Part shown: piece by piece, positions 2,799 to 34,463 of the stretch | How the letters are laid out: each line of letters opens with the position of its first letter | How positions within the stretch are numbered: the first letter of the stretch is position 1 | DNA from: an uncultured Mycoplasmatota bacterium | Lineage (GTDB): Bacteria; Bacillota_I; Bacilli_A; RF39; UBA660 | Assembly: GCA_948472605.1 (NCBI GenBank) | Contig: CAOKUH010000001.1 | Location: 1 to 34,463, forward strand | Reading direction: 5' to 3' | DNA: 34,463 bases | The notes under the pieces: model-generated | Database searches by the model: none | What the model was told of the DNA's origin: nothing | What the model saw: only the letters and a program-made list of their open reading frames with translations | Made by a program: the position numbers and the translations under genes

Positions 2799-3899
2799 AT
2801 GTTGTTAAGTAAATATGCTTGTCAAAATGAAGAGGCTATGCGTTTTAAAGAAGAAAAAGAAGATAAATATCGTACACCATTCTTTCGTGATATTGATAGA
2901 ATTATTTATTCTCTAAGTTATACAAGATATGCTGATAAAACTCAAGTATTTAGTTTTAATGAAAATGACCATATAACAAAGCGAATGGTTCATGTGCAAC
3001 TAGTTAGTAAAATAGCAAGAACTATTGGTAGAAATTTAGGGTTAAATGAAGATTTAATCGAAGCAGCGTCTCTTGGCCATGATCTTGGCCATGTTCCATT
3101 TGGACATGTAGGAGAAAGAATTTTAAATAAAATAAGCTTAGAAAATAATGAAGGATATTTTAATCATAATATTGAAAGCGTAAGAGTTTTAATGAATTTA
3201 GAGCAAAAAGGAGAAGGAAGAAATATTACCATCCAAGTTTTAGATGCTATTATGTGCCATAATGGTGAACTTCCTTTAAATGAATATTATCCTACTTCTA
3301 AAACTAAGGATGTATTTTTAAAAGAATATGAATTATCTTACAAAGAGGAAAGTGCAATTAAAAACTTAAAACCTATGACATTAGAAGGTTGTGTTGTAAG
3401 AGTAAGTGATATTATTGCATATATTGGAAAAGATATCGAAGATGCTATTAGACTAGGAATAATAAAAAAAGCGGATATTCCTAAAAATATTACAAATGTT
3501 TTAGGAGTTGATAATCGTAGTATAATTAATACAATAGTTAGTGATATTATTGAAAATAGTAAAAATAAGCCATATATTAAAATGAGTGAAAATATATATG
3601 AAGCACTTATAACCTTAAAAGAATTTAATACCAAAAACATTTATGCTATAGCAAACACAAAAGAACAAATTAATGAATATGAAAAAATGTTTAGAAGTTT
3701 ATTTAATAAATACAAAAAAGATATTCAAAAAAACAATCTTAATTCGGAAATATGGAATGTTTTCTTATATGATATGAATGAAGATTATTTAAAAAATACG
3801 ACAATAAATCGCAAAGTGATTGATTTTATAGCAGGAATGACTGATGATTATATGAGAAATTGTTATATTAATTTAAATAAGGAGGAAAAAAATGTCTGA
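2799..3899 (+). CDS. HD-domain dNTP triphosphohydrolase-like protein (dGTPase family)
   Basis: HD motif SLGHDLGHVPFGHVGE and family-typical N-terminus (RTPFFRDIDRIIYS). GGGAGG sits 5 nt before ATG 2799. Confidence 0.8.
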   Translation: MLLSKYACQNEEAMRFKEEKEDKYRTPFFRDIDRIIYSLSYTRYADKTQVFSFNENDHITKRMVHVQLVSKIARTIGRNLGLNEDLIEAASLGHDLGHVPFGHVGERILNKISLENNEGYFNHNIESVRVLMNLEQKGEGRNITIQVLDAIMCHNGELPLNEYYPTSKTKDVFLKEYELSYKEESAIKNLKPMTLEGCVVRVSDIIAYIGKDIEDAIRLGIIKKADIPKNITNVLGVDNRSIINTIVSDIIENSKNKPYIKMSENIYEALITLKEFNTKNIYAIANTKEQINEYEKMFRSLFNKYKKDIQKNNLNSEIWNVFLYDMNEDYLKNTTINRKVIDFIAGMTDDYMRNCYINLNKEEKNV

Positions 3900-4128
3900 A
3901 TTAAAAATTAAAGGAATTTACAAACATTATAAAGGAGACTTATATCTAGTTGAAGATATAATTTATCATAGCGAAACAAGTGAGAAAATGATTGCTTATC
4001 GAGCTTTATATGGAGATAATAGACTATGGTGTAGACCATACGACTTGTTTTTTGATGAAGTAAATAAGAATGGTCAAAAATATAGATTTGAATTACAAGA
4101 TATAAAAAGTTTACGAGAAGAAGAATAA
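3892..4128 (+). CDS. DUF1653-family small protein
   Basis: YKHYKGDLY...HSETSEKMIAYRALYGD...WCRPYDLF pattern. AAGGAGG SD. 8-nt overlap with the upstream gene. Confidence 0.65.
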   Translation: MSELKIKGIYKHYKGDLYLVEDIIYHSETSEKMIAYRALYGDNRLWCRPYDLFFDEVNKNGQKYRFELQDIKSLREEE

Positions 4129-12100: not shown

Positions 12101-12843
12101 GAGTTAAATATGCTACCCCTGTATTTGATGGAGCAAACCTAGATGATATTCATGAAGAAATGAAAGAAGCTGGAATGAGCGAAGATGGAAAAGTAGAGCT
12201 TATTAATGGTCGTACAGGAGAACCATTTGAAAACCGCATTAATGTTGGTGTCATGTATATGGTTAAACTTCACCATATGGTTGATGATAAACTTCATGCA
12301 AGAGCAACAGGACCATATTCATTAGTAACTCAACAACCACTTGGTGGTAAAGCTCAATTTGGTGGACAAAGATTTGGAGAAATGGAAGTTTGGGCATTAT
12401 ATGCTTATGGAGCTGCTCATGTTCTTCAAGAAATCTTAACTATAAAATCTGATGATGTTGTTGGACGTGTTAAAGTTTATGAATCTTTAGTAAAAGGTAA
12501 AACTGTCAATCAAGCAGGAGTACCAGAATCATTTAGAGTTTTAATAAAAGAATTCCAAGCTCTAGGATTAAATATTCAAATACTTGATAATGAAGATAAC
12601 TTATTAGATTTAAAAGACATTGAAGATGATGAAGAAAAAGAAGATACAATTCGTATTGATGAAATAGATGTAAATAATCCTTTAGCAGAACAAGGAACAC
12701 CAGTTTTAGTAGAAGAACCAACTGATACTAATGATGATTATGAAGATGCCGATGAAGATGAATTCGAAGAAAATACTTTAGATGATTTGGAGTTCCCTGG
12801 GGACATAGATGTTAAAGATTTGGAAGGTGGTGATATCCTATGA
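9199..12843 (+). CDS. rpoB: DNA-directed RNA polymerase subunit beta
   Basis: Full-length match to the RpoB pattern ([33 protein letters not shown]). GTG start with GGGGTGA SD. Acidic C-terminal tail. Confidence 0.98.
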
Positions 12844-15800
12844 TAGAAGTTAATAAATTTAAAGGTATAAAAATAGGTATTGCCAGTCCTGAAATAATTC
12901 GTAAATGGTCTCATGGAGAAGTAAAAAAACCAGAAACTATTAATTATCGTACTTTAAAACCTGAACGTGATGGTTTATTTTGCGAAAAGATTTTTGGACC
13001 TAACAAAGATTACGAATGTAGTTGTGGTAAATATAAAAGATTAAGATATAAAAATGTTGTATGTGATCGTTGTGGCGTTGAAGTAACTAAATCTAAAGTT
13101 CGTCGTGAAAGAATGGGACATATAGAATTAGCTAGCCCTTGTAGTCATATATGGTTCTTTAAAGGTGTACCTTCTAAAATGGGCTTAGTTTTAGATATGT
13201 CACCAAGAGACTTAGAAGAGGTATTATATTTTGTAAGTTATGTAGTTTTAGATCCAGGTAGTGCCCCATTAGAAAAAAAGCAAACTCTATCTGATAAAGA
13301 ATATCGTGCTTATTATGAAAAATATGGTTCATCTTTTAAAGTAGGTATGGGTGCTGAAGCTATTCAAGTCTTATTAAAAGAAGTTGACGTTGATAAAGAA
13401 GTTGAAGAGTTAAGAAAAGAATTAGAAACAGCTACTGGTCAAAAACGTATTCGTTTAGTAAAACGTTTAGATTGTCTAGTATCATTCCAAGAATCTGAAA
13501 ATAAACCAGAATGGATGATTTTAACTGTTTTACCAGTTATTCCACCAGAGCTTCGTCCAATGATTCAATTAGATGGTGGAAGATTTGCTACATCTGATTT
13601 AAATGACTTATATCGTCGTATAATCAATCGTAATAATCGTCTAAAGAAATTGCTTGAACTTGGAGCACCAACAATCATTGTTCAAAATGAAAAAAGAATG
13701 CTTCAAGAAGCTGTTGATTCATTATTTGATAATGGTCGTCGTGGTAGAAGTGTAACAGCTGCAGGTAATAGACCACTTAAATCTTTAGCAAGTATGTTAA
13801 AAGGTAAACAAGGACGTTTCCGTCAAAACTTACTTGGTAAACGTGTTGACTATTCAGGACGTAGTGTTATCGTAGTTGGACCAAACTTAAAAATGTATCA
13901 ATGTGGTATTCCAAAAGAAATGGCCCTAGAACTATTTAAACCTCATGTAATTCATGGTTTGGTAGATAGAGGACTGGCTCATAACATAAAAGGGGCTAAA
14001 AAATTAATCGAAACAAGAGATGACTCTGTTTGGGATGTAGTGGAAGACGTTATAACAGAACATCCAGTAATGTTAAATAGAGCTCCAACACTACATAGAC
14101 TTGGTATTCAAGCATTCGAACCTAAGCTTGTAGGTGGTAAAGCAATTCGTTTACACCCATTAGTTTGTACTGCATTTAATGCTGATTTCGATGGAGACCA
14201 AATGGCAGTGCATGTTCCACTTTCTGAAGAGGCAAAAGCCGAAGCTAGAATATTAATGCTTGGTGCTAACAATATCTTAAATCCAAAAGATGGAAAACCA
14301 ATCGTTACACCATCTCAAGATATGGTATTAGGAAATTGTTATTTAACTATTGAAAAATCTGGACTTCCAAATGAAGGTAAAGTATATAAAAATAGTAATG
14401 AAGCATTAATGGCTTATGAAAGAAAAGAAATAACACTACATACAAGAATAGTTTTACCTGTAAAATCATTTAAACATAAATTATTTACAGATGATCAAAA
14501 AGATAAATATTTAATTACAACTTGTGGAAAAATAATATTTAATGAAATATTACCAGATACTTTCCCATATATTAATGAACCTACTAAAGAAAATATTGAA
14601 GGAATTACTCCAAGTAAATATTTCTTAAGTATGGGAACAAATATTAAAGAGGAGATTACTAATCGTGAATTAGTAAAACCATTTGTTAAAAAGACATTAC
14701 AAAATATTATTGCCCAAGTATTTAAAAGATATAAAACAACTGAAACTTCTATTATGCTTGATAGATTAAAAGATTTAGGATTTAAATATTCAACAGTAGC
14801 TGGTATTACTGTATCTGCTGCTGACATTAAACTAAGTCAAAATAAACATGATATTATTGATGAAGGTAAAGAAATAGTTGATAAAATTAATAAACAATTT
14901 AAACGTGGTTTAATAACAGAAGAGGAACGTTATAATAATGTAATTAATACATGGAATAGTCAACAAGATAAAATTAAAGCCGAATTACAAGAAATGGCTG
15001 ATGGTGACTTTGAAAATCCATTATTTATGATGATGAACTCAGGAGCTCGTGGATCTATTTCTAACTTCGTACAACTTTCTGGTATGCGTGGTTTAATGGC
15101 TAAACCAGATGGTTCAACAGTTGAAATTCCAATAACTTCTAACTTTATGGAAGGTCTTAAAGTTAGTGAGTTCTTCTTATCAAGTCATGGTTCTCGTAAA
15201 GGCTCTGCGGACACTGCTTTACGTACAGCAGATTCTGGTTATTTAACTAGACGTTTAGTTGATGTTGTTCAAGACATTATTGTTCGTGAATTTGATTGTG
15301 GTTCAATTAATGGTGTAGAAGTTTATGATTTAATTAACGATAAAGATGGTTCTGTAATAGAGCCACTAGCTGAACGTATTTTAGGACGTTATTCTGCTCA
15401 AAAAATCATTAATCCTGAAACTAAAGAAGTTATTTTAGATAAAGGAGAAATGATTACTGAAAATATTGTTTCTAAAATTGAAAAAGCTGGTATCAAAAAT
15501 GTAGAAATCAGAAGTATCTTAACTTGTAAATCAGAACAAGGCGTATGTCAAAAATGTTATGGACGTAACCTTGCCACTGGTAACTTAGTAGAAACTGGAG
15601 AAGCTGTTGGTATAATGGCAGCCCAATCTATTGGAGAACCAGGAACCCAACTTACTATGCGTACATTCCACTCAGGTGGAGTTGCCCATGGTGGAGATGC
15701 GGATATTACACAAGGTTTACCAAGAGTTGAAGAATTATTTGAAGCTCGTAACCCTAAAGCTAAAGCAACAATTGCTGAAATTAGTGGTAAAATCGAATCA

Positions 15801-16559
15801 ATAGAAGAACAAAATGGTAAACATAAAATTGTTATTGCTAGCGATGTCGAAGTTAGAGACCATATTACAAATTACAACATGAAAGTTCGCGTTAATGTTG
15901 GAGATATTGTAAATGCTGGAGATAAACTAACTGAAGGTGCCGTTAGTCCTAAAGAATTACTTGCGGTAACAGATCCTATTTCTGCTCAAGAATATATCTT
16001 AAAAGAAATCCAAATGGTATATAAATTACAAGGTGTTGATATTTCCGATAAACATATCGAAATAATTGTTTCTCGTATGATTAATAAAGTTCGTATCGTT
16101 GATGCAGGAGACACAGATTTTGTTGAAGGATTAACTGTATCAATGAGAGAATTTACAAATGGCAACAAACCAGTAATTTTAAAAGGCGGAGTTCCAGCAA
16201 AAGGAAGACCTATTATGTTAGGTATAACTAAAAGTTCATTAGAAACTGATTCTTTCTTATCTGCTGCATCATTCCAAGAAACTACTCGTGTTCTAACAGA
16301 TGCTGCAATAAAAGGAAAAGTAGACAATTTAAAAGGACTTAAAGAAAATGTTATTATTGGTAAATTAATACCAGCTGGTACTGGTGCTAAACAATATAGT
16401 GACATAGAAATTCTTTTACAAAAAGAATTTATGGATGATGATGCTAGTGAATTCTTTGAAGAAAAGTTAATGGATGACATTACAGATGAAACAGTAGAAG
16501 ACATAGATTTAGATGATTTAAATGAAATTGTAGAAGAAACTAATGAAGATAATGAATAG
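12840..16559 (+). CDS. rpoC: DNA-directed RNA polymerase subunit beta'
   Basis: Zn finger CSCGKYK...CDRCGVEV and catalytic [18 protein letters not shown] overlap with the rpoB stop. Confidence 0.98.
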
Positions 16560-16580
16560 GAAGAGAAATCTTCCTTTTTC
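16558..16580 (+). terminator. Intrinsic terminator of rpoBC
   Basis: AGGAAGA-GAAA-TCTTCCT followed by TTTTC, overlapping the TAG stop. Confidence 0.8.
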
Positions 16581-16582
16581 TA

Positions 16583-16611
16583 TTGACAAAACGTTCGGGG
16601 GGGGGTATAAT
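16583..16611 (+). promoter_or_regulatory. Perfect consensus sigma-A promoter TTGACA-N17-TATAAT whose spacer ends in G9
   Basis: TTGACA at 16583-16588, spacer AAACGTTCGGGGGGGGG (17 nt), TATAAT at 16606-16611. AGGAAGG SD and ATG 16645 lie downstream. Confidence 0.75.
16597..16605. repeat. G9 homopolymer tract
   Basis: Nine consecutive G counted directly. It is the longest G/C run I noticed in this AT-rich window. Confidence 0.95.
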
Positions 16612-16644
16612 TGGGTTATAATAGGATAGAGAGTAGGAAGGTTT

Positions 16645-17919
16645 ATGTTAAAGGATAATAAATTAGAGAAATTTACAAAGAATAAAAATAAGAAAAAAAT
16701 TATAACGATATCAGTAATTGCATTTGTTCTTTTAATTGGAGTAATAACACTTTATAGAACATTTGCATTATATGAAGAAAAGTTAGAGTTTAATTTAATC
16801 CAAGGTAAAGTACCAGAATATACAAGTGGAGATGTAAGTATCGCAGCTATAGTTGATGGGGTAAAATCTAGTACCATCCCTAGTAAAGGAAATGGCTATG
16901 TATTTGAAAGTGCAGTTTGTGATAATGGAGCTACTGGAGAATGGGATAATAATAGATGGGCATTCATTATTCTAGGATTAAATAAAACTAAAACAACCTG
17001 TACTTTAACATTTGTTCCTGGTTCTTCTAAAGGAACTGATTATATAACTGATTTAGTTGAAACAAATCCAGATATGTTAGCCTATGATGGAACAGAAGAT
17101 AATAATTTAAGATATATAGGAAAAAATCCAAATAACTATGTTAAGTTTAATAATGAGATATGGCGAATCATCGGAGTCATGAATAACATCACCGATAGTG
17201 AAGGAAATGTTGGAAGTCATATTAAAATAATAAGAAATGAAAGTATAGGTAGTTATTCATGGGATAATAAAGCCAGTGGAACAGGTTCATCAACAAGTAG
17301 TAATGGAAGTAATGATTGGACAGATAGTGCCCTTATGAATGTGTTAAATAATGGAGCATATTATAATCGAACAAGTGGTAATTGTCCAAAAGGACAAAAT
17401 GGAGCAACAACAGCATGTGATTTTAGTAGTAATGGATTAACTGAAGAAACAAAGAGAATGATAGCAAATGTAGTATGGAAACTAGGAGGGCATACCACAT
17501 CAAGAGCTACAGCAAGTGCGATGTATGGATATGAAAGAGGAACAAGTGTATCTAGTGGACGTCCAACAGAATGGACAGGACGTATAGGATTAATGTATCC
17601 AAGTGATTATGGATATGCAGTTGGTGGTAGTGTTAGAGAAACATGTTTAGGAAAAAATTTATATGATTACAATACCAATAATTGTCATACCAATGATTGG
17701 TTATATAAAAGTGGCACAAATCAATGGTCATTGATGCCTGAAAGTAGTGATGGTAATGGCCATCGTGTGTTTATTGCGAATGGTAATGGTAATGGCAATA
17801 GCCATCCTGCGAATAGTACCGATGCTATCCTTCCTGTCTTGTATCTAGCCTCTAATGTCGAAATAATAGAAGGTGATGGCACAAGCACTAATCCATACCA
17901 ACTTGGTGTTGCAAGTTAA
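16645..17919 (+). CDS. Membrane-anchored or secreted surface protein (424 aa), function unknown
   Basis: Lys-rich N-terminus followed by one TM helix (IITISVIAFVLLIGVITL). Gly/Asn/Ser/Thr/Trp-rich ectodomain with several Cys. C-terminal GNGNGNGNS. Confidence 0.6.
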   Translation: MLKDNKLEKFTKNKNKKKIITISVIAFVLLIGVITLYRTFALYEEKLEFNLIQGKVPEYTSGDVSIAAIVDGVKSSTIPSKGNGYVFESAVCDNGATGEWDNNRWAFIILGLNKTKTTCTLTFVPGSSKGTDYITDLVETNPDMLAYDGTEDNNLRYIGKNPNNYVKFNNEIWRIIGVMNNITDSEGNVGSHIKIIRNESIGSYSWDNKASGTGSSTSSNGSNDWTDSALMNVLNNGAYYNRTSGNCPKGQNGATTACDFSSNGLTEETKRMIANVVWKLGGHTTSRATASAMYGYERGTSVSSGRPTEWTGRIGLMYPSDYGYAVGGSVRETCLGKNLYDYNTNNCHTNDWLYKSGTNQWSLMPESSDGNGHRVFIANGNGNGNSHPANSTDAILPVLYLASNVEIIEGDGTSTNPYQLGVAS

Positions 17920-21862: not shown

Positions 21863-23062
21863 ATGGAAGATATAAAAATTGAAAAGTTAGATAATTTTGG
21901 TAGAGGAATATGTTACTTTAATAATAAAATAACATTTATTAAAAATGCTCTTCCTGATGAAATAATATCTTATAAAATTATTAAAGAAAATAAAAAATAC
22001 AATTTAGCAGAAGTAACTGAATATAAAAAATATTCAGAAAAAAGAACTAAACCATTTTGTCCCTATTATTTAAAATGTGGAGGATGTAATTTAGAACATC
22101 TTGATTATAAAAGTACATTGGAATTTAAATTAAATAAAGTAAAACAAATTTTAGATAAAGAAAAAATTATATATGATAATATTGAAATAGTTTCAAATGA
22201 AGTACCTAAAAATTATCGAAATAAGTTATCTTTAAAAGTAAAAGATTATCTAATTGGTTTTTATGAAGAGGGTACGCATAATATAATTGAAGTAAAAAAT
22301 TGTAGTATCGCTTATAATTCTATAAATGAAGTTTTAAAAAGAATAAAATATTTAAATATAAAAAATGGTAATGTAACTATACGAAGTAATTATAATGATG
22401 AAATATTATTGATAATTGATACTAATGATAAAATAAAATTTAATATTGCTCTTTTTAGCAACTTAAAAATAGTAGGAGTAATAGTTAACAAAAAAGTCAT
22501 TTATGGGCAAAACTTTTTTTATGAAAGCATTAATGGATATTTATTTAAAGTTAGTTTTGATGCATTTTTTCAAGTTAATCAATTTATAACTTCTAAATTA
22601 TTTAATATTATAGAAGAAAACATTGATGAATCTAATACAATACTTGATTTATATTCTGGGGTAGGAACGCTTGGAATAGTAGCAAGTAAAAAAGCTAAAA
22701 AAGTTTATAGTATTGAAATTGTAAAAAATGCTGTCTTAGATAATATTACAAATAAAAAATTAAACAAAAAAGATAATATTTATCCTATCTTGGGAGATGC
22801 CAAAAAAGTTATAACGAAAATAAAAGATAAGTTTGATACCATCTTAATAGATCCACCAAGAAAGGGATTGGATAGTTTATCCAAAAATTTAATTCTTAAT
22901 AATGATGTATCTAAAATTATTTATATTTCCTGTGATTTAATGACTCTTGTTAGAGATTTAAAAGAATTAACTAAGAAGTATAAAATAATTAAATATTATG
23001 TATTAGATATGTTTAGTTATACTTATCACGTTGAATGTGTATGCGTGATGACGAGGCGATAA
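21863..23062 (+). CDS. rlmD: 23S rRNA (uracil-C5)-methyltransferase RlmD/RumA family
   Basis: TRAM-like N-terminus, Fe-S cysteines (CPYYLKCGGCNLEH), SAM motif DLYSGVGTLG, DPPRKG, and the C-terminal ISCD...DMFSYTYHVECVCV typical of RumA. Confidence 0.9.
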   Translation: MEDIKIEKLDNFGRGICYFNNKITFIKNALPDEIISYKIIKENKKYNLAEVTEYKKYSEKRTKPFCPYYLKCGGCNLEHLDYKSTLEFKLNKVKQILDKEKIIYDNIEIVSNEVPKNYRNKLSLKVKDYLIGFYEEGTHNIIEVKNCSIAYNSINEVLKRIKYLNIKNGNVTIRSNYNDEILLIIDTNDKIKFNIALFSNLKIVGVIVNKKVIYGQNFFYESINGYLFKVSFDAFFQVNQFITSKLFNIIEENIDESNTILDLYSGVGTLGIVASKKAKKVYSIEIVKNAVLDNITNKKLNKKDNIYPILGDAKKVITKIKDKFDTILIDPPRKGLDSLSKNLILNNDVSKIIYISCDLMTLVRDLKELTKKYKIIKYYVLDMFSYTYHVECVCVMTRR

Positions 23063-23234
23063 ATCCTTTATAAATAAAGGAAAAATCAACTATTCAGTAG
23101 GGGTCAAAAAATGGTAAAAAACGAGTGAATTATTGATATTTTTACTAATTTTTGAAAAAAATACTATAGAGGTTGTCTGTGGAGAATATGTTTCATCATA
23201 CCACCCTAACTGGTATGTGCCTGAATAGTTGAAG
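23027..23234 (+). repeat. Module R1: last 36 nt of rlmD plus a ~170-nt conserved arm (first of three direct copies)
   Basis: Starts at CACGTTGAATGTGTATG. Aligns along its whole length with 24261-24467 and, more loosely, with 26421-26588. Confidence 0.9.
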
Positions 23235-24156: not shown

Positions 24157-24260
24157 GATATATTCATAATTAACATTATACATATCTATTATGTATATTA
24201 TGACATAGTCAGTTATAACCAAACATATAAATTCTAACTCTTCATAATATACATTCTAGT

Positions 24261-24467
24261 CACGTTGAATGTGTATGTGTGTTAAATAGGCGATAAACCC
24301 TTATAAATAAAGGGAAAATCAACTATTCAGTAGGGGTCAAAAAAATGGTAAAAAAACGATAAAAAAATGATATTTTTACTAATTTTTGAAAAAAATATTG
24401 TGGAGGTTGTCTGTGGAGAATATGTTTAGTTATACTACCCTAACTGGTATGTGTTGACTAGTTGAAT
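24261..24467 (+). repeat. Module R2 (second copy of the rlmD 3' end plus arm)
   Basis: CACGTTGAATGTGTATGTGTGTTAAATAGGCGATAA encodes HVECVCVLNRR*. The arm is near-identical to R1. Confidence 0.9.
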
Positions 24468-24490: not shown

Positions 24491-25345
24491 ATGATAATTG
24501 ATAAAGGAATAATAGATGAAGCATTAAATTTTTATAATATAGATTTACAATATAAAGATAAATGTTATAATTGCATAGAAGAAATAAATAAAAAAGAGGA
24601 ATTAAATTTGGCTTTTCTAAATTTATATGAAAAATTATACATTGAAGAATTTACAAAAATAAAAGAATTATGGCATTATAGAGATGTAGATGATTTATTT
24701 GCACATAATACTAATTCTTTTGTTACTAATATAATGATTTTAATAGGTTATCATTATCATCAAGAAAATATGCAAAAACATAATTTTAATGATTTTCAAA
24801 TTAATATTCATAAAAAAAGAGTTAAGGAATGTTTTGAATATGACTTAAAAGTAAGAAAAAGAGATGGAGTTAGAGTATCACAAATGCTATGGGCTATTTA
24901 TTTTATTAGAACAAGAATCATTGAAATAGGTAGTCTACAGTTTGAATGTGATTCCGATTCAGTAATACAAATTCATATTCCTAAAAATACCGATTTAAAT
25001 ATTTTTAGTGTTAAAGAGTCGATTAAAAAAGCAACCATTGAAATGAAACAAATTTATTCAATGAATAATTTTAAGTATATATGTAATTCATGGCTATTAA
25101 GTAAACAAATATATGAAATTGCAGATAAAAATTCTAATATTTCAAAATTTTATGAATTGTTCAATGTAACTGAAGGAGAAGAATGTATTAATGATATATT
25201 AAATTTTGTATATGGAATAGACCAATGCGAAGATTATTCTTTATTACCTACAAATACTACATTACAAAGTAATATTAAAATTAAATTATTAGATGGTAGA
25301 AATTTTTACTCAGGTCTAGGTATTTTAAAAGAAAATGCTGTATAG
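24491..25345 (+). CDS. Acyltransferase-domain protein (N-acyltransferase N-terminal / GNAT-like C-terminal type)
   Basis: IGSLQFE...IHIPK and C-terminal CNSWLLS...NSNISKFYELF match my memory of this family. AGGAG SD. Confidence 0.5.
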   Translation: MIIDKGIIDEALNFYNIDLQYKDKCYNCIEEINKKEELNLAFLNLYEKLYIEEFTKIKELWHYRDVDDLFAHNTNSFVTNIMILIGYHYHQENMQKHNFNDFQINIHKKRVKECFEYDLKVRKRDGVRVSQMLWAIYFIRTRIIEIGSLQFECDSDSVIQIHIPKNTDLNIFSVKESIKKATIEMKQIYSMNNFKYICNSWLLSKQIYEIADKNSNISKFYELFNVTEGEECINDILNFVYGIDQCEDYSLLPTNTTLQSNIKIKLLDGRNFYSGLGILKENAV

Positions 25346-25370
25346 TGTTATTAGATTAGGAGGTACAATT

Positions 25371-26391
25371 TTGAAAAATGAAGTTATAGAAAATAATAAA
25401 ACAGAATTAATAATATATGAATCAAAAGATGGAAGCATCAAACCAGATGTCAATTTAGAAAATGAAACAGTTTGGTTAACTTTAGAACAAATGACAAAAT
25501 TATTCGGAAGAGATAAATCGGTAATTTCTAGGCATATAAAAAATATATTTGAAGAAGGTGAATTAGAAAAAAATGATTCAACTATTGCAAATTTTGCAAC
25601 AGTTCAAAAAGAAGGAACTAGAGTGGTTGAAAGAAATATAGATTATTATAATTTGGACGTAGTAATCAGTGTTGGTTATAGAGTTAAATCTTTAGAAGGG
25701 GTAAGATTTAGAAAATGGGCAACTGCAAGAATTAAGGAATATATTATTAAAGGATATACTATGGATGATGAACGCCTTAAAAATCTTGGTGGTGGTAAAT
25801 ATTTTTATGAACTTTTAAATCGTATTAAAGATATAAGATCAAGTGAAAAGGTTTTATATAGACAAGTTCTTGATTTATATGCTACTGATATTGATTATAA
25901 TCCTAAAGCTGAAGAAACAATAAAATTCTTTAAGATAGTCCAAAACAAGTTTCATTTCGCGGCACATGGCAATACTATAGCAGAAGTGATTTATAATCGT
26001 GCCGATTCAAATAGCCCTTTATGGGAATTACTAATTTTCAAGGAGAGTTGCCTAGTATAAGTGATATAGAAGTTCTAAAAATTATTTAACTGAAGAACTT
26101 TTGCTGCTTAATAACTTGGTTTCAGGTTATTTTGACTTTGCTGAATTTCAAGCAATGAAACATAAACCAATGAGAATGAAAGATTATATTAATCAACTAG
26201 ATAAAATACTTAATTCTTTAGATGCAAATATTTTAAATAATGCAGGCAGTATTAGTCATAAAAAAGCAAAAGAAAAAGTTAAATTAGAATATGAAAAGTA
26301 TAAGATAAAAGAGCTAAGTTCTATCGAAAAAGAATATTTAAATTCTATTAATAAAATTAATGAAATTGCTGATAAATTAAGAAAAAATTAA
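25371..26391 (+). pseudogene. rhuM: RhuM-family protein gene disrupted by two 1-nt frameshifts
   Basis: The N-terminal 230 aa (LTLEQMTKLFGRDKSVISRHIKNIF...GYRVKSLEGVRFRKWA) and the C-terminal part (NNLVSGYFDFAEFQAMKHKPMRM) lie in different frames. The connecting PFMGITNFQGELPSISDIEV is in the third frame. Shifts near 26013 and 26075. AGGAGG plus TTG start at 25371. Confidence 0.7.
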
Positions 26392-26420
26392 TGATATACA
26401 ATAGACATTGTATCCAAAGT

Positions 26421-26588
26421 CACGTTGAATGTGTATGTATGTTAAACAGAAGGTAAGTTTAGTTGGAGGCAAAAAATGTTGAAAAACGAGTAAATTGTTG
26501 ACTATTTGGTAGATTAGAAAAATTATAGGGGTATGTAGAGAATATGTTTCATAATACTCTCTAACTATTATGTATTGATTAATTGAAT
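26421..26588 (+). repeat. Module R3 (third, most diverged copy of the rlmD 3' end plus arm)
   Basis: CACGTTGAATGTGTATGTATGTTAAACAGAAGGTAA encodes HVECVCMLNRR*. The arm is homologous to R1/R2 but lacks the post-stop hairpin. Confidence 0.85.
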
Positions 26589-34355: not shown

Positions 34356-34408
34356 ATATTCACCACCATAACAATTTATCTTTCTAGTTAAAGTTTATCA
34401 TGAATTTA

Positions 34409-34463
34409 TTTAATAGACATCTTGCGAAACTAAATATCTAAGCAAAAATTGTAAAGAGAGCAT
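34409..34463. repeat. Right arm of the perfect 55-bp terminal inverted repeat
   Basis: Exact reverse complement of 1-55. Confidence 0.95.

Follow-up and report, generated by a model that had tools for sequence, protein, structure and literature searches.

The locus downstream of rpoC and its product

The stretch of DNA analysed here (the window) is one entire MAG contig of 34,463 nt, deposited at NCBI and ENA. It carries ftsK, genes for an HD hydrolase and a ybxB-like methyltransferase, rpoB, rpoC and the gene of interest, which encodes a protein of 424 aa. The minus strand bears a gerA-type operon for spore germination, and rlmD, a nitrilase gene, fmt and others are present too. This chromosomal gene set, including the gerA-type operon, indicates that the contig belongs to an AT-rich, spore-forming Firmicute. 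The stop codon of rpoC was located at 16559 and a terminator-like hairpin at 16558-16575, followed by a T run, and the promoter of the 424-aa gene sits immediately past both. The features of the locus, together with those of related loci discussed below, are collected in Table 1. The original prediction had pointed to an absent synteny after rpoC, and this was borne out: rpsL, rpsG and fusA do not follow it, and the gerA-type operon comes next on the minus strand.

Table 1. Positions of features in the window and in related loci (L numbers)
Feature	Position	Strand	Basis or remark
rpoC, upstream, separate transcription unit	12840-16559	+	five RNA_pol_Rpb1 Pfam domains, lowest E 9e-90
rpoC intrinsic terminator, AGGAAGA-GAAA-TCTTCCT hairpin + TTTTT	16558-16580	+	terminator scan, sequence reading
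-35 hexamer TTGACA	16583-16588	+	sequence reading, promoter scan
17-nt spacer AAACGTTCGGGGGGGGG	16589-16605	+	3′ nine bases are G9
G9 homopolymer, proposed hypermutable tract	16597-16605	+	run count, Markov expectation, homologous loci
Imperfect 10-nt tandem duplication GGGTATAATT/GGGTTATAAT	16603-16622	+	read from sequence
Proximal -10 hexamer TATAAT, 17 nt from -35	16606-16611	+	sequence reading, promoter scan
Shine-Dalgarno-like AGGAAGG	16635-16641	+	read from sequence
424-aa gene, predicted signal-anchored surface protein	16645-17919	+	ORF, homologues, AlphaFold model
Predicted transmembrane/signal-anchor helix, residues 14-40	16684-16764	+	DSSP on AlphaFold model
Hypervariable C-terminal patch, DGR variable-region pattern	17725-17830	+	protein/DNA alignments; residues ~361-395
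DGR cassettes directly downstream of family genes	L133 1549-2991; L122 2027-3373; L100, L126, L004, L036, L061, L085, L107, L114, L131, L158		
TR/VR pairs	L004 1093-1194/1416-1517; L061 5059-5162/7305-7408; L036 1136-1189/1714-1767		

Several repeats were observed elsewhere in the window. Its two ends (1-70 and 34394-34463) are inverted repeats of each other, 94% complementary, so that copies of a repeated element appear to flank the contig. A repeat of ~200 nt is present in three copies (23019-23219, 24253-24453 and 26418-26501); it includes the last rlmD codons and downstream sequence and brackets two cassettes (nitrilase; GNAT_C and RhuM), an arrangement that looks like serial insertions at the rlmD 3′ end. 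The RhuM-family gene (25335-26391) is split in two ORFs (25335-26060 and 26101-26391) and is probably disrupted.

On re-reading, all coordinates of the promoter agreed with the original prediction, which had placed a G run within the spacer of a perfect consensus promoter: TTGACA is separated by 17 nt from TATAAT, and the G9 abuts the latter. In a count of both G and C runs, what had been called a striking homopolymer proved to be the window's sole stretch of at least 6. The expectation under a first-order Markov model, at a GC content of 26.1%, is 0.004 runs of at least nine Gs. When both strands were scanned for consensus promoters matching at 12 of 12 positions with a spacer of 16-18 nt, this one alone was recovered, against a chance expectation of ~0.17 in the window as estimated from hexamer counts. 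The consensus promoter by itself is therefore unremarkable; the G9 inside it is remarkable. It sits between recognisable -35 and -10 elements, and its length is within the range in which G/C runs are hypermutable (~8 or more).

The tandem duplication, which the original prediction had missed, generates a second TATAAT at 16617-16622. This distal box lies 11 nt downstream of the proximal one and would be 28 nt from TTGACA. Between the proximal box and the ATG (16645) there are 33 nt, while the distal box lies 22 nt from the ATG, as do the -10 elements of the paralogues L167, L018, L055 and L068. The promoter/leader region had no Rfam match, and the predicted leader was without significant RNA structure (fold z-score -1.1). 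A known RNA element or leader structure was ruled out as an explanation on these grounds.

At its N-terminus the protein has a tail rich in Lys (MLKDNKLEKFTKNKNKKK), which leads into a hydrophobic helix. In the AlphaFold model, whose mean pLDDT is 64, the helix is succeeded by a beta-sandwich and a larger mixed domain, and Gly, Asn, Ser and Thr together make up 42% of the ectodomain. The predicted helix and this composition support the original description of the product as a membrane-anchored, Gly/Asn/Ser/Thr-rich extracytoplasmic protein. No significant Pfam or NCBIfam match was obtained for the 424-aa protein, and a sequence search against solved structures gave no match. With Foldseek, the top structure was PDB 9qa6, the Thomasclavelia ramosa IgA peptidase (E 4e-6, 312 columns, 17% identity), and weak matches to C-type-lectin structures ranked after it. 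Residues 31-322 of this peptidase, its N-terminal domain, are labelled DUF6273 (PMC12402451). The structural match to a DUF6273-containing protein suggests that the window protein is a divergent DUF6273 relative. The corresponding HMM (PF19789) did not match the window protein even at E ≤ 1 and matched 17 of 30 close relatives weakly (best E 7e-6). No other structure matched the predicted ectodomain as well as the N-terminal DUF6273 domain of the T. ramosa peptidase, in a model of medium confidence (pLDDT 64); in contrast to the peptidase, the window protein has no M64 peptidase domain. The product is predicted to be a type-II membrane-anchored protein with a DUF6273-like, C-type-lectin-like ectodomain, and from the model we infer that it is exposed at the surface.

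The protein collection contained more than 7000 homologues, none of them named, from uncultured gut Bacilli or 'Tenericutes' MAGs. The gene had originally been taken as lineage-specific; it belongs instead to this very large family. Among the IMG/VR viral contigs no relatives of the family were detected; all the members found came from cellular contigs, and a phage origin was ruled out on this account.

G runs at the 5′ ends of related genes

A family-alignment scan with one genome per GTDB species yielded 79 loci, and a metagenome scan yielded 80 further loci. The 79 loci were all from uncultured Bacilli, 'Tenericutes' or Firmicutes MAGs, except one labelled Muribaculaceae, and the hosts of these MAGs were chicken (Candidatus Ventrenecus), rabbit, mouse and human guts. 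NCBI places Candidatus Ventrenecus under Bacteria incertae sedis. The cluster members P0124 and P0126 were unrelated 34-aa peptides, and locus L165 was irrelevant. G runs were counted in a set of 167 sequences comprising 857 kb with 28.6% GC. In total, 55 runs of at least 7 were present, with lengths of 7 (4 runs), 8 (7), 9 (10), 10 (29), 11 (3) and 12 (2). Runs of G9 or longer numbered 44, compared with ~0.3 expected in 857 kb. The original prediction had proposed a search for G tracts upstream of paralogous surface-protein genes, and the outcome was positive: G7-G12 tracts occur at 5′ ends in many independent MAGs. A run within -160 to +200 of the start was present in 21 of the 59 5′-complete family genes, the other 38 having none. 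Several MAGs carried five to seven or more family loci. Paralogues of one genome can have their own runs, as in CANPJT (7 loci, several with G8-G10), and the related MAGs CANQYR, CANQIN, CANRKL and CALVWG have several family loci each.

All 55 runs, those in promoters included, read as G in the sense direction of the family gene; the sole C run is an artefactual 50-nt contig end. The bias for G over C holds even in promoters, where coding constraint does not apply, and our model leaves it unaccounted for.

The runs fell mainly into two classes. In the promoter class (~20 runs, G9-G12), TTGAC[ATG] is found 1-8 nt upstream of the run and a TATAAT-like box, often with an upstream TGn, 0-10 nt downstream, with the ATG ~22 nt after the box. 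The runs of the paralogues usually abut the -35; in their typical pattern 1-3 nt separate TTGAC[ATG] from the run and 6-10 nt separate the run from the box. At the assembled lengths their spacers measure 19-22 nt, which exceeds the optimum. The window alone in this class has a 17-nt spacer, and none of the other members is at 17-18 nt. The N-terminus of L167 is near-identical to that of the window protein, and its promoter, TTGACA-ccgatat-G10-tgc-TATAAT, has a spacer of 20 nt with the run in the 3′ half, as in the window.

In a subfamily of loci (L008 ~2233-2290, L032 ~3893-3950, L076 ~1446-1500 and L090 ~1321-1360), the stretch from the poly-G promoter to the start codon contains a short hairpin with a T run (e.g. 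CTATAGCgaaGCTATGG followed by T9). This leader hairpin looks like a terminator or attenuator.

In the coding class (~26 runs), the run is in the 5′ coding region, after the ATG or within the TM segment, with one mid-gene case (L044). It is located just past the start codon in L002, L040, L051, L052, L066, L074 and L166, and inside the signal/TM segment, where it encodes Gly-Gly-Gly, in L012, L049, L050, L053, L060, L067, L079, L036, L038, L062, L094, L032 and L041. Reading frames were tested by a script varying the run length. In most cases 9 or 12 Gs kept the frame and the assembled run had 10, indicating that almost all coding-class genes are frameshifted. L041 (G9) was in frame, and L012, L049, L079 and L035 were out of frame at the assembled length. 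G9 restored exact colinearity with tract-less paralogues. The coding-class genes were almost all ON+1, not spread over the three frames.

Unequal runs were observed on near-identical flanks: G9 in L046 versus G11 and G9 in L047, G8 in L032 versus G9 in L041, and G10 in L050 and L060 versus G8 in L053. In different samples, near-identical flanks enclosed an out-of-frame G8 in L100 and an in-frame G9 in L133. The window (G9) and L167 (G10) share the same promoter type with unequal runs. Interrupted, 'locked' runs were also found at the same position, namely GGGAGGGGGG in L085 and L080, GGGGAGGGGG in L080 and GGGGTGGTGG in L083. L166 (1-120) and L167 (1-110) share the upstream sequence tttaagcttaccactaca and then diverge, L166 into a leader ORF with G10 in its coding region and L167 into a promoter with G10 in the spacer, suggesting recombinational exchange of 5′ switch modules between loci.

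The run lengths peak at 10 and 9, resembling the distribution in Campylobacter, where poly-G/C tract lengths peak at 9 (53%) and 10 (26%) and variability has been reported for all such G/C tracts of C. jejuni NCTC 11168 (PMC6321876). G10 is dominant even among paralogues with diverged flanks, a distribution more uniform than naive random drift predicts, and this uniformity could indicate a conserved length instead of free variation, although the Campylobacter tracts peak in a similar way.

Two contigs that share the 5′ UTR of the window, L001 and L082, both break at the position of the run. L001 starts 16 nt downstream of it, and L082 (1-50, shown reversed) ends in a C50 homopolymer artefact exactly at the G9 site. 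The run appears to break assemblies, as would fit a difficulty with the reads at the tract. No same-species contig that spans the run came out of exact look-ups of the window protein and of RpoC, or out of a gapped-pattern search for the promoter in the metagenome collection. Because the window is itself a MAG contig and a related contig ends in an artefact at this very site, we considered whether the G9 is a spurious product of sequencing or assembly, for instance a poly-G of two-colour chemistry joining two contigs. The homopolymer of L082, however, is on the opposite strand (C50 in gene orientation), and the two flanks of the run in the window combine into a coherent promoter at an intergenic site that makes sense. 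Moreover, dozens of MAGs, obtained in different studies and from different hosts, have equivalent runs of 7-12 nt, whose flanks are conserved on both sides and across which reading frames continue. An artefact is, on this evidence, very improbable.

A candidate promoter-spacing switch

Simple-sequence contingency loci are textbook biology for a few cultured pathogens (Neisseria, Haemophilus, Campylobacter, Helicobacter and Mycoplasma). In Neisseria meningitidis, porA (poly-G) and opc (poly-C) have a tract between the -35 and -10 of an outer-surface gene, and its length sets transcription with an optimum of ~17 bp. We consider it likely, judging from the promoter layout and the related loci, that the G9 is a tract of this kind, driven by slippage and setting the strength of a sigma-A-type promoter. 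Slipped-strand mispairing at replication would add or remove one G in the G9:C9 tract. The run makes up 9 of the 17 bp between the hexamers, so that each indel shifts both their spacing and their rotational phasing. G9 would give the optimal 17 bp and an ON or high state, G8 or G10 would give 16 or 18 bp and a reduced promoter, and G7 or fewer or G11 or more would bring the promoter close to OFF. Since the window alone has the optimal 17-nt spacing, its copy is predicted to be ON.

Individual copies in the family would be switched by a poly-G of their own, located in the promoter for transcriptional control or in the 5′ coding region for a frameshift, and most copies are predicted to be OFF or low in the assembled consensus sequences. 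With nearly all paralogues predicted OFF and the window gene ON, the picture fits a family with few members expressed at once. The parts of the original slipped-strand proposal that sequence can test hold, namely the position in the spacer, the predicted signal-anchored product, the G7-G12 runs at 5′ ends throughout the family, the unequal lengths and the on/off frames. The architecture, the sense-strand G runs at 5′ ends, the frame relationships and the length differences on near-identical flanks were read directly. The hypermutability of the tract at the window locus and its effect on transcription are what these features lead us to infer, and host IgA, phage or ligand availability would be the presumed selective agent.

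Like porA and opc, the window has its tract between the -35 and -10 of a predicted surface-protein gene. Unlike them, its host is a Gram-positive-type, spore-forming, uncultured gut bacterium of 26% GC, the tract abuts the -10, and the gene belongs to a large paralogous family whose protein is unrelated to porins. The vlp system of Mycoplasma hyorhinis is a multigene surface-protein family with a poly-A in the promoter spacer of each copy, most copies being OFF at a time. The present family resembles vlp and other variable surface-protein families of Mollicutes in being membrane-anchored and multigene and in occurring in AT-rich, reduced-genome relatives of Bacilli. It differs from vlp in that the tract is poly-G, not poly-A, that the proteins are signal-anchored with a lectin fold and are not repetitive lipoproteins, and that part of the family would be switched by tracts in the 5′ coding region. 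The Campylobacter phasome (PMC6321876) is similar in that an AT-rich genome has runs of ~8-12 G/C, peaking at 9-10, that occur only in contingency genes, some within coding sequence and others intergenic. On the other hand, the phylum and the gene families differ, all 55 runs here are G on the sense strand, and the OFF fraction in the coding class is much above the one third expected by neutral drift.

Some of the observations count against a switch. The other promoter-class spacers measure 19-22 nt, and either all those copies are OFF or the -10/-35 assignment and the spacing rule are incomplete. The distal TATAAT is the positional homologue of the -10 of the paralogues and, if it is used, the run is outside the spacer. 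The dominance of G10 among diverged paralogues and the 38 of 59 5′-complete genes without a run are further points of this sort. Possible reasons for the G10 dominance, the ON+1 excess, the spacer misfit, the bias for G over C and the position of the distal TATAAT are mutational equilibrium with selection against ON, leaky +1 slippage on GGG codons, or a promoter model that is not complete.

Two other readings were weighed against these observations. The promoter could be static, the G run having been inherited with a family-typical 5′ module as a spacer of fixed length, with constitutive expression and no relevant switching. The striking uniformity of G10 among diverged paralogues and the persistence of interrupted runs of the same total length agree with this. 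However, a static promoter leaves a G9 in a 26%-GC genome without explanation, near-identical flanks carry lengths of 7-12, and frameshifted coding runs make sense only if length changes restore the frame. To our knowledge, G/C runs of at least 8 are hypermutable in every species measured. A static promoter is therefore unlikely.

The run could also act otherwise than through the spacing of -35 and -10. In one version the distal TATAAT is used and the G run is an upstream protein-binding or structural element overlapping a weak -35; in another, the family-wide G10 is a site of programmed slippage, by RNA polymerase or by the ribosome, and not a switch in the DNA. The distance of the distal box from the ATG, exactly that of the four paralogues named above, is in line with the former, and the latter could draw on the coding runs, most of which are ON+1, a state that a ribosome slipping by +1 on GGG codons could rescue. 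Nor do the 19-22-nt spacers of the paralogues obey a simple 17-nt rule. Against this, the nearest -35 candidate for the distal box is TTCGGG, with 2 of 6 matches, and the perfect TTGACA is 28 nt off. The promoter-class runs, the window included, are upstream of the transcription start, and slippage at the RNA level cannot apply there. Furthermore, the spacer tract of N. meningitidis porA still obeys the 17-bp optimum with 11 G. We rate such roles as unlikely, somewhat more so than a static promoter, and a tract that tunes the spacing of the promoter remains the reading we prefer.

A poly-G promoter switch would be of a well-known kind, and a literature search found no published description of one for this lineage and protein family.

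DGR-like diversification of the family

The window protein and P0001 are 86% identical overall, and residues 361-395 are unrelated. This C-terminal patch has a GC content of 44%, versus 33% for the whole 424-aa gene. When it was aligned with the closest relatives, the codons were NNT and the invariant columns were non-A in 21 of 22; invariant A was common in the flanks of the patch in the same DNA alignment. NNT codons and a near-absence of invariant A are the pattern expected from an AAT-rich template repeat (TR), and the C-terminal binding patch of the window gene looks as though it had been diversified by a DGR. The window itself encodes no reverse transcriptase (RT) or Avd, and it has neither a TR nor a second copy of the variable patch. 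A local DGR within the window was ruled out on this account, and any DGR would act in trans, or else the patch is a relic.

DGR cassettes were found at related loci. Downstream of the family gene, at least 12 loci have a small ORF of MutS_I type, then a bAvd-like ORF (PF22296, E 7e-8) and a reverse transcriptase carrying the DGR-typical IGNLSSQ motif (Table 1). In L004, L061 and L036, where TR/VR pairs were identified, mismatches between the two repeats are almost only at TR adenines. The MutS_I-like ORF has its own 5′ poly-G run in L133 (1604-1612, G9), L122 (2068-2076, G9) and L100 (2503-2510, G8). With near-identical flanks in different samples, the ORF stays open across the run in L133 and L122 but is shifted out of frame in L100. 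These on and off frames suggest that hypermutation, i.e. DGR activity, may itself be phase-variable. No paper joining DGR with homopolymer phase variation was found in a literature search.

The family resembles DGR targets of the C-type-lectin fold (Bordetella phage Mtd, Treponema TvpA and the DUF6273-containing phage 'tentaclins', PMC10743442) in its C-terminal variable region, in the paralogous loci with adenine-specific TR/VR pairs near Avd and an RT (IGxxxSQ motif), and in the matching NNT-codon pattern of the window gene. Unlike Mtd, TvpA and the tentaclins, it is found in cellular contigs only, is anchored by an N-terminal helix and is apparently gated in its expression by poly-G, and the window itself is without RT, Avd and TR.

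Taken together, the assembled consensus sequences suggest that uncultured gut Bacilli have many poly-G-switched genes, and that this switching is superimposed on lectin-fold receptors diversified by DGR. As a tentative model, to which we give somewhat less than an even chance, uncultured, spore-forming, AT-rich gut Bacilli would possess a two-tier system. DGRs would rewrite the binding sites of dozens of membrane-anchored lectin-fold receptors, each receptor gene would have its own poly-G gate and nearly all would be silent, hypermutation would perhaps be phase-variable too, and the window gene would be the member that is currently ON. If this is true, uncultured commensal gut Bacilli with reduced genomes, in chicken, rabbit, mouse and human, use contingency switching on a large scale, and apply it to a family of surface lectins diversified by DGR. 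One and the same protein could then be subject to both on/off switching and targeted hypermutation, and there would be a testable handle on the surface variation of these Bacilli versus IgA, phage or changing ligands. The poly-G runs would also explain the fragmentation of MAG assemblies at family genes and the frequent mis-calling of these genes as truncated ORFs.

The family is also modular. A C-terminal lectin-like domain near-identical to that of the window protein occurs on different N-terminal domains or in tandem duplication (P0010, P0004 and P0008-P0014), indicating frequent recombination among the paralogues.
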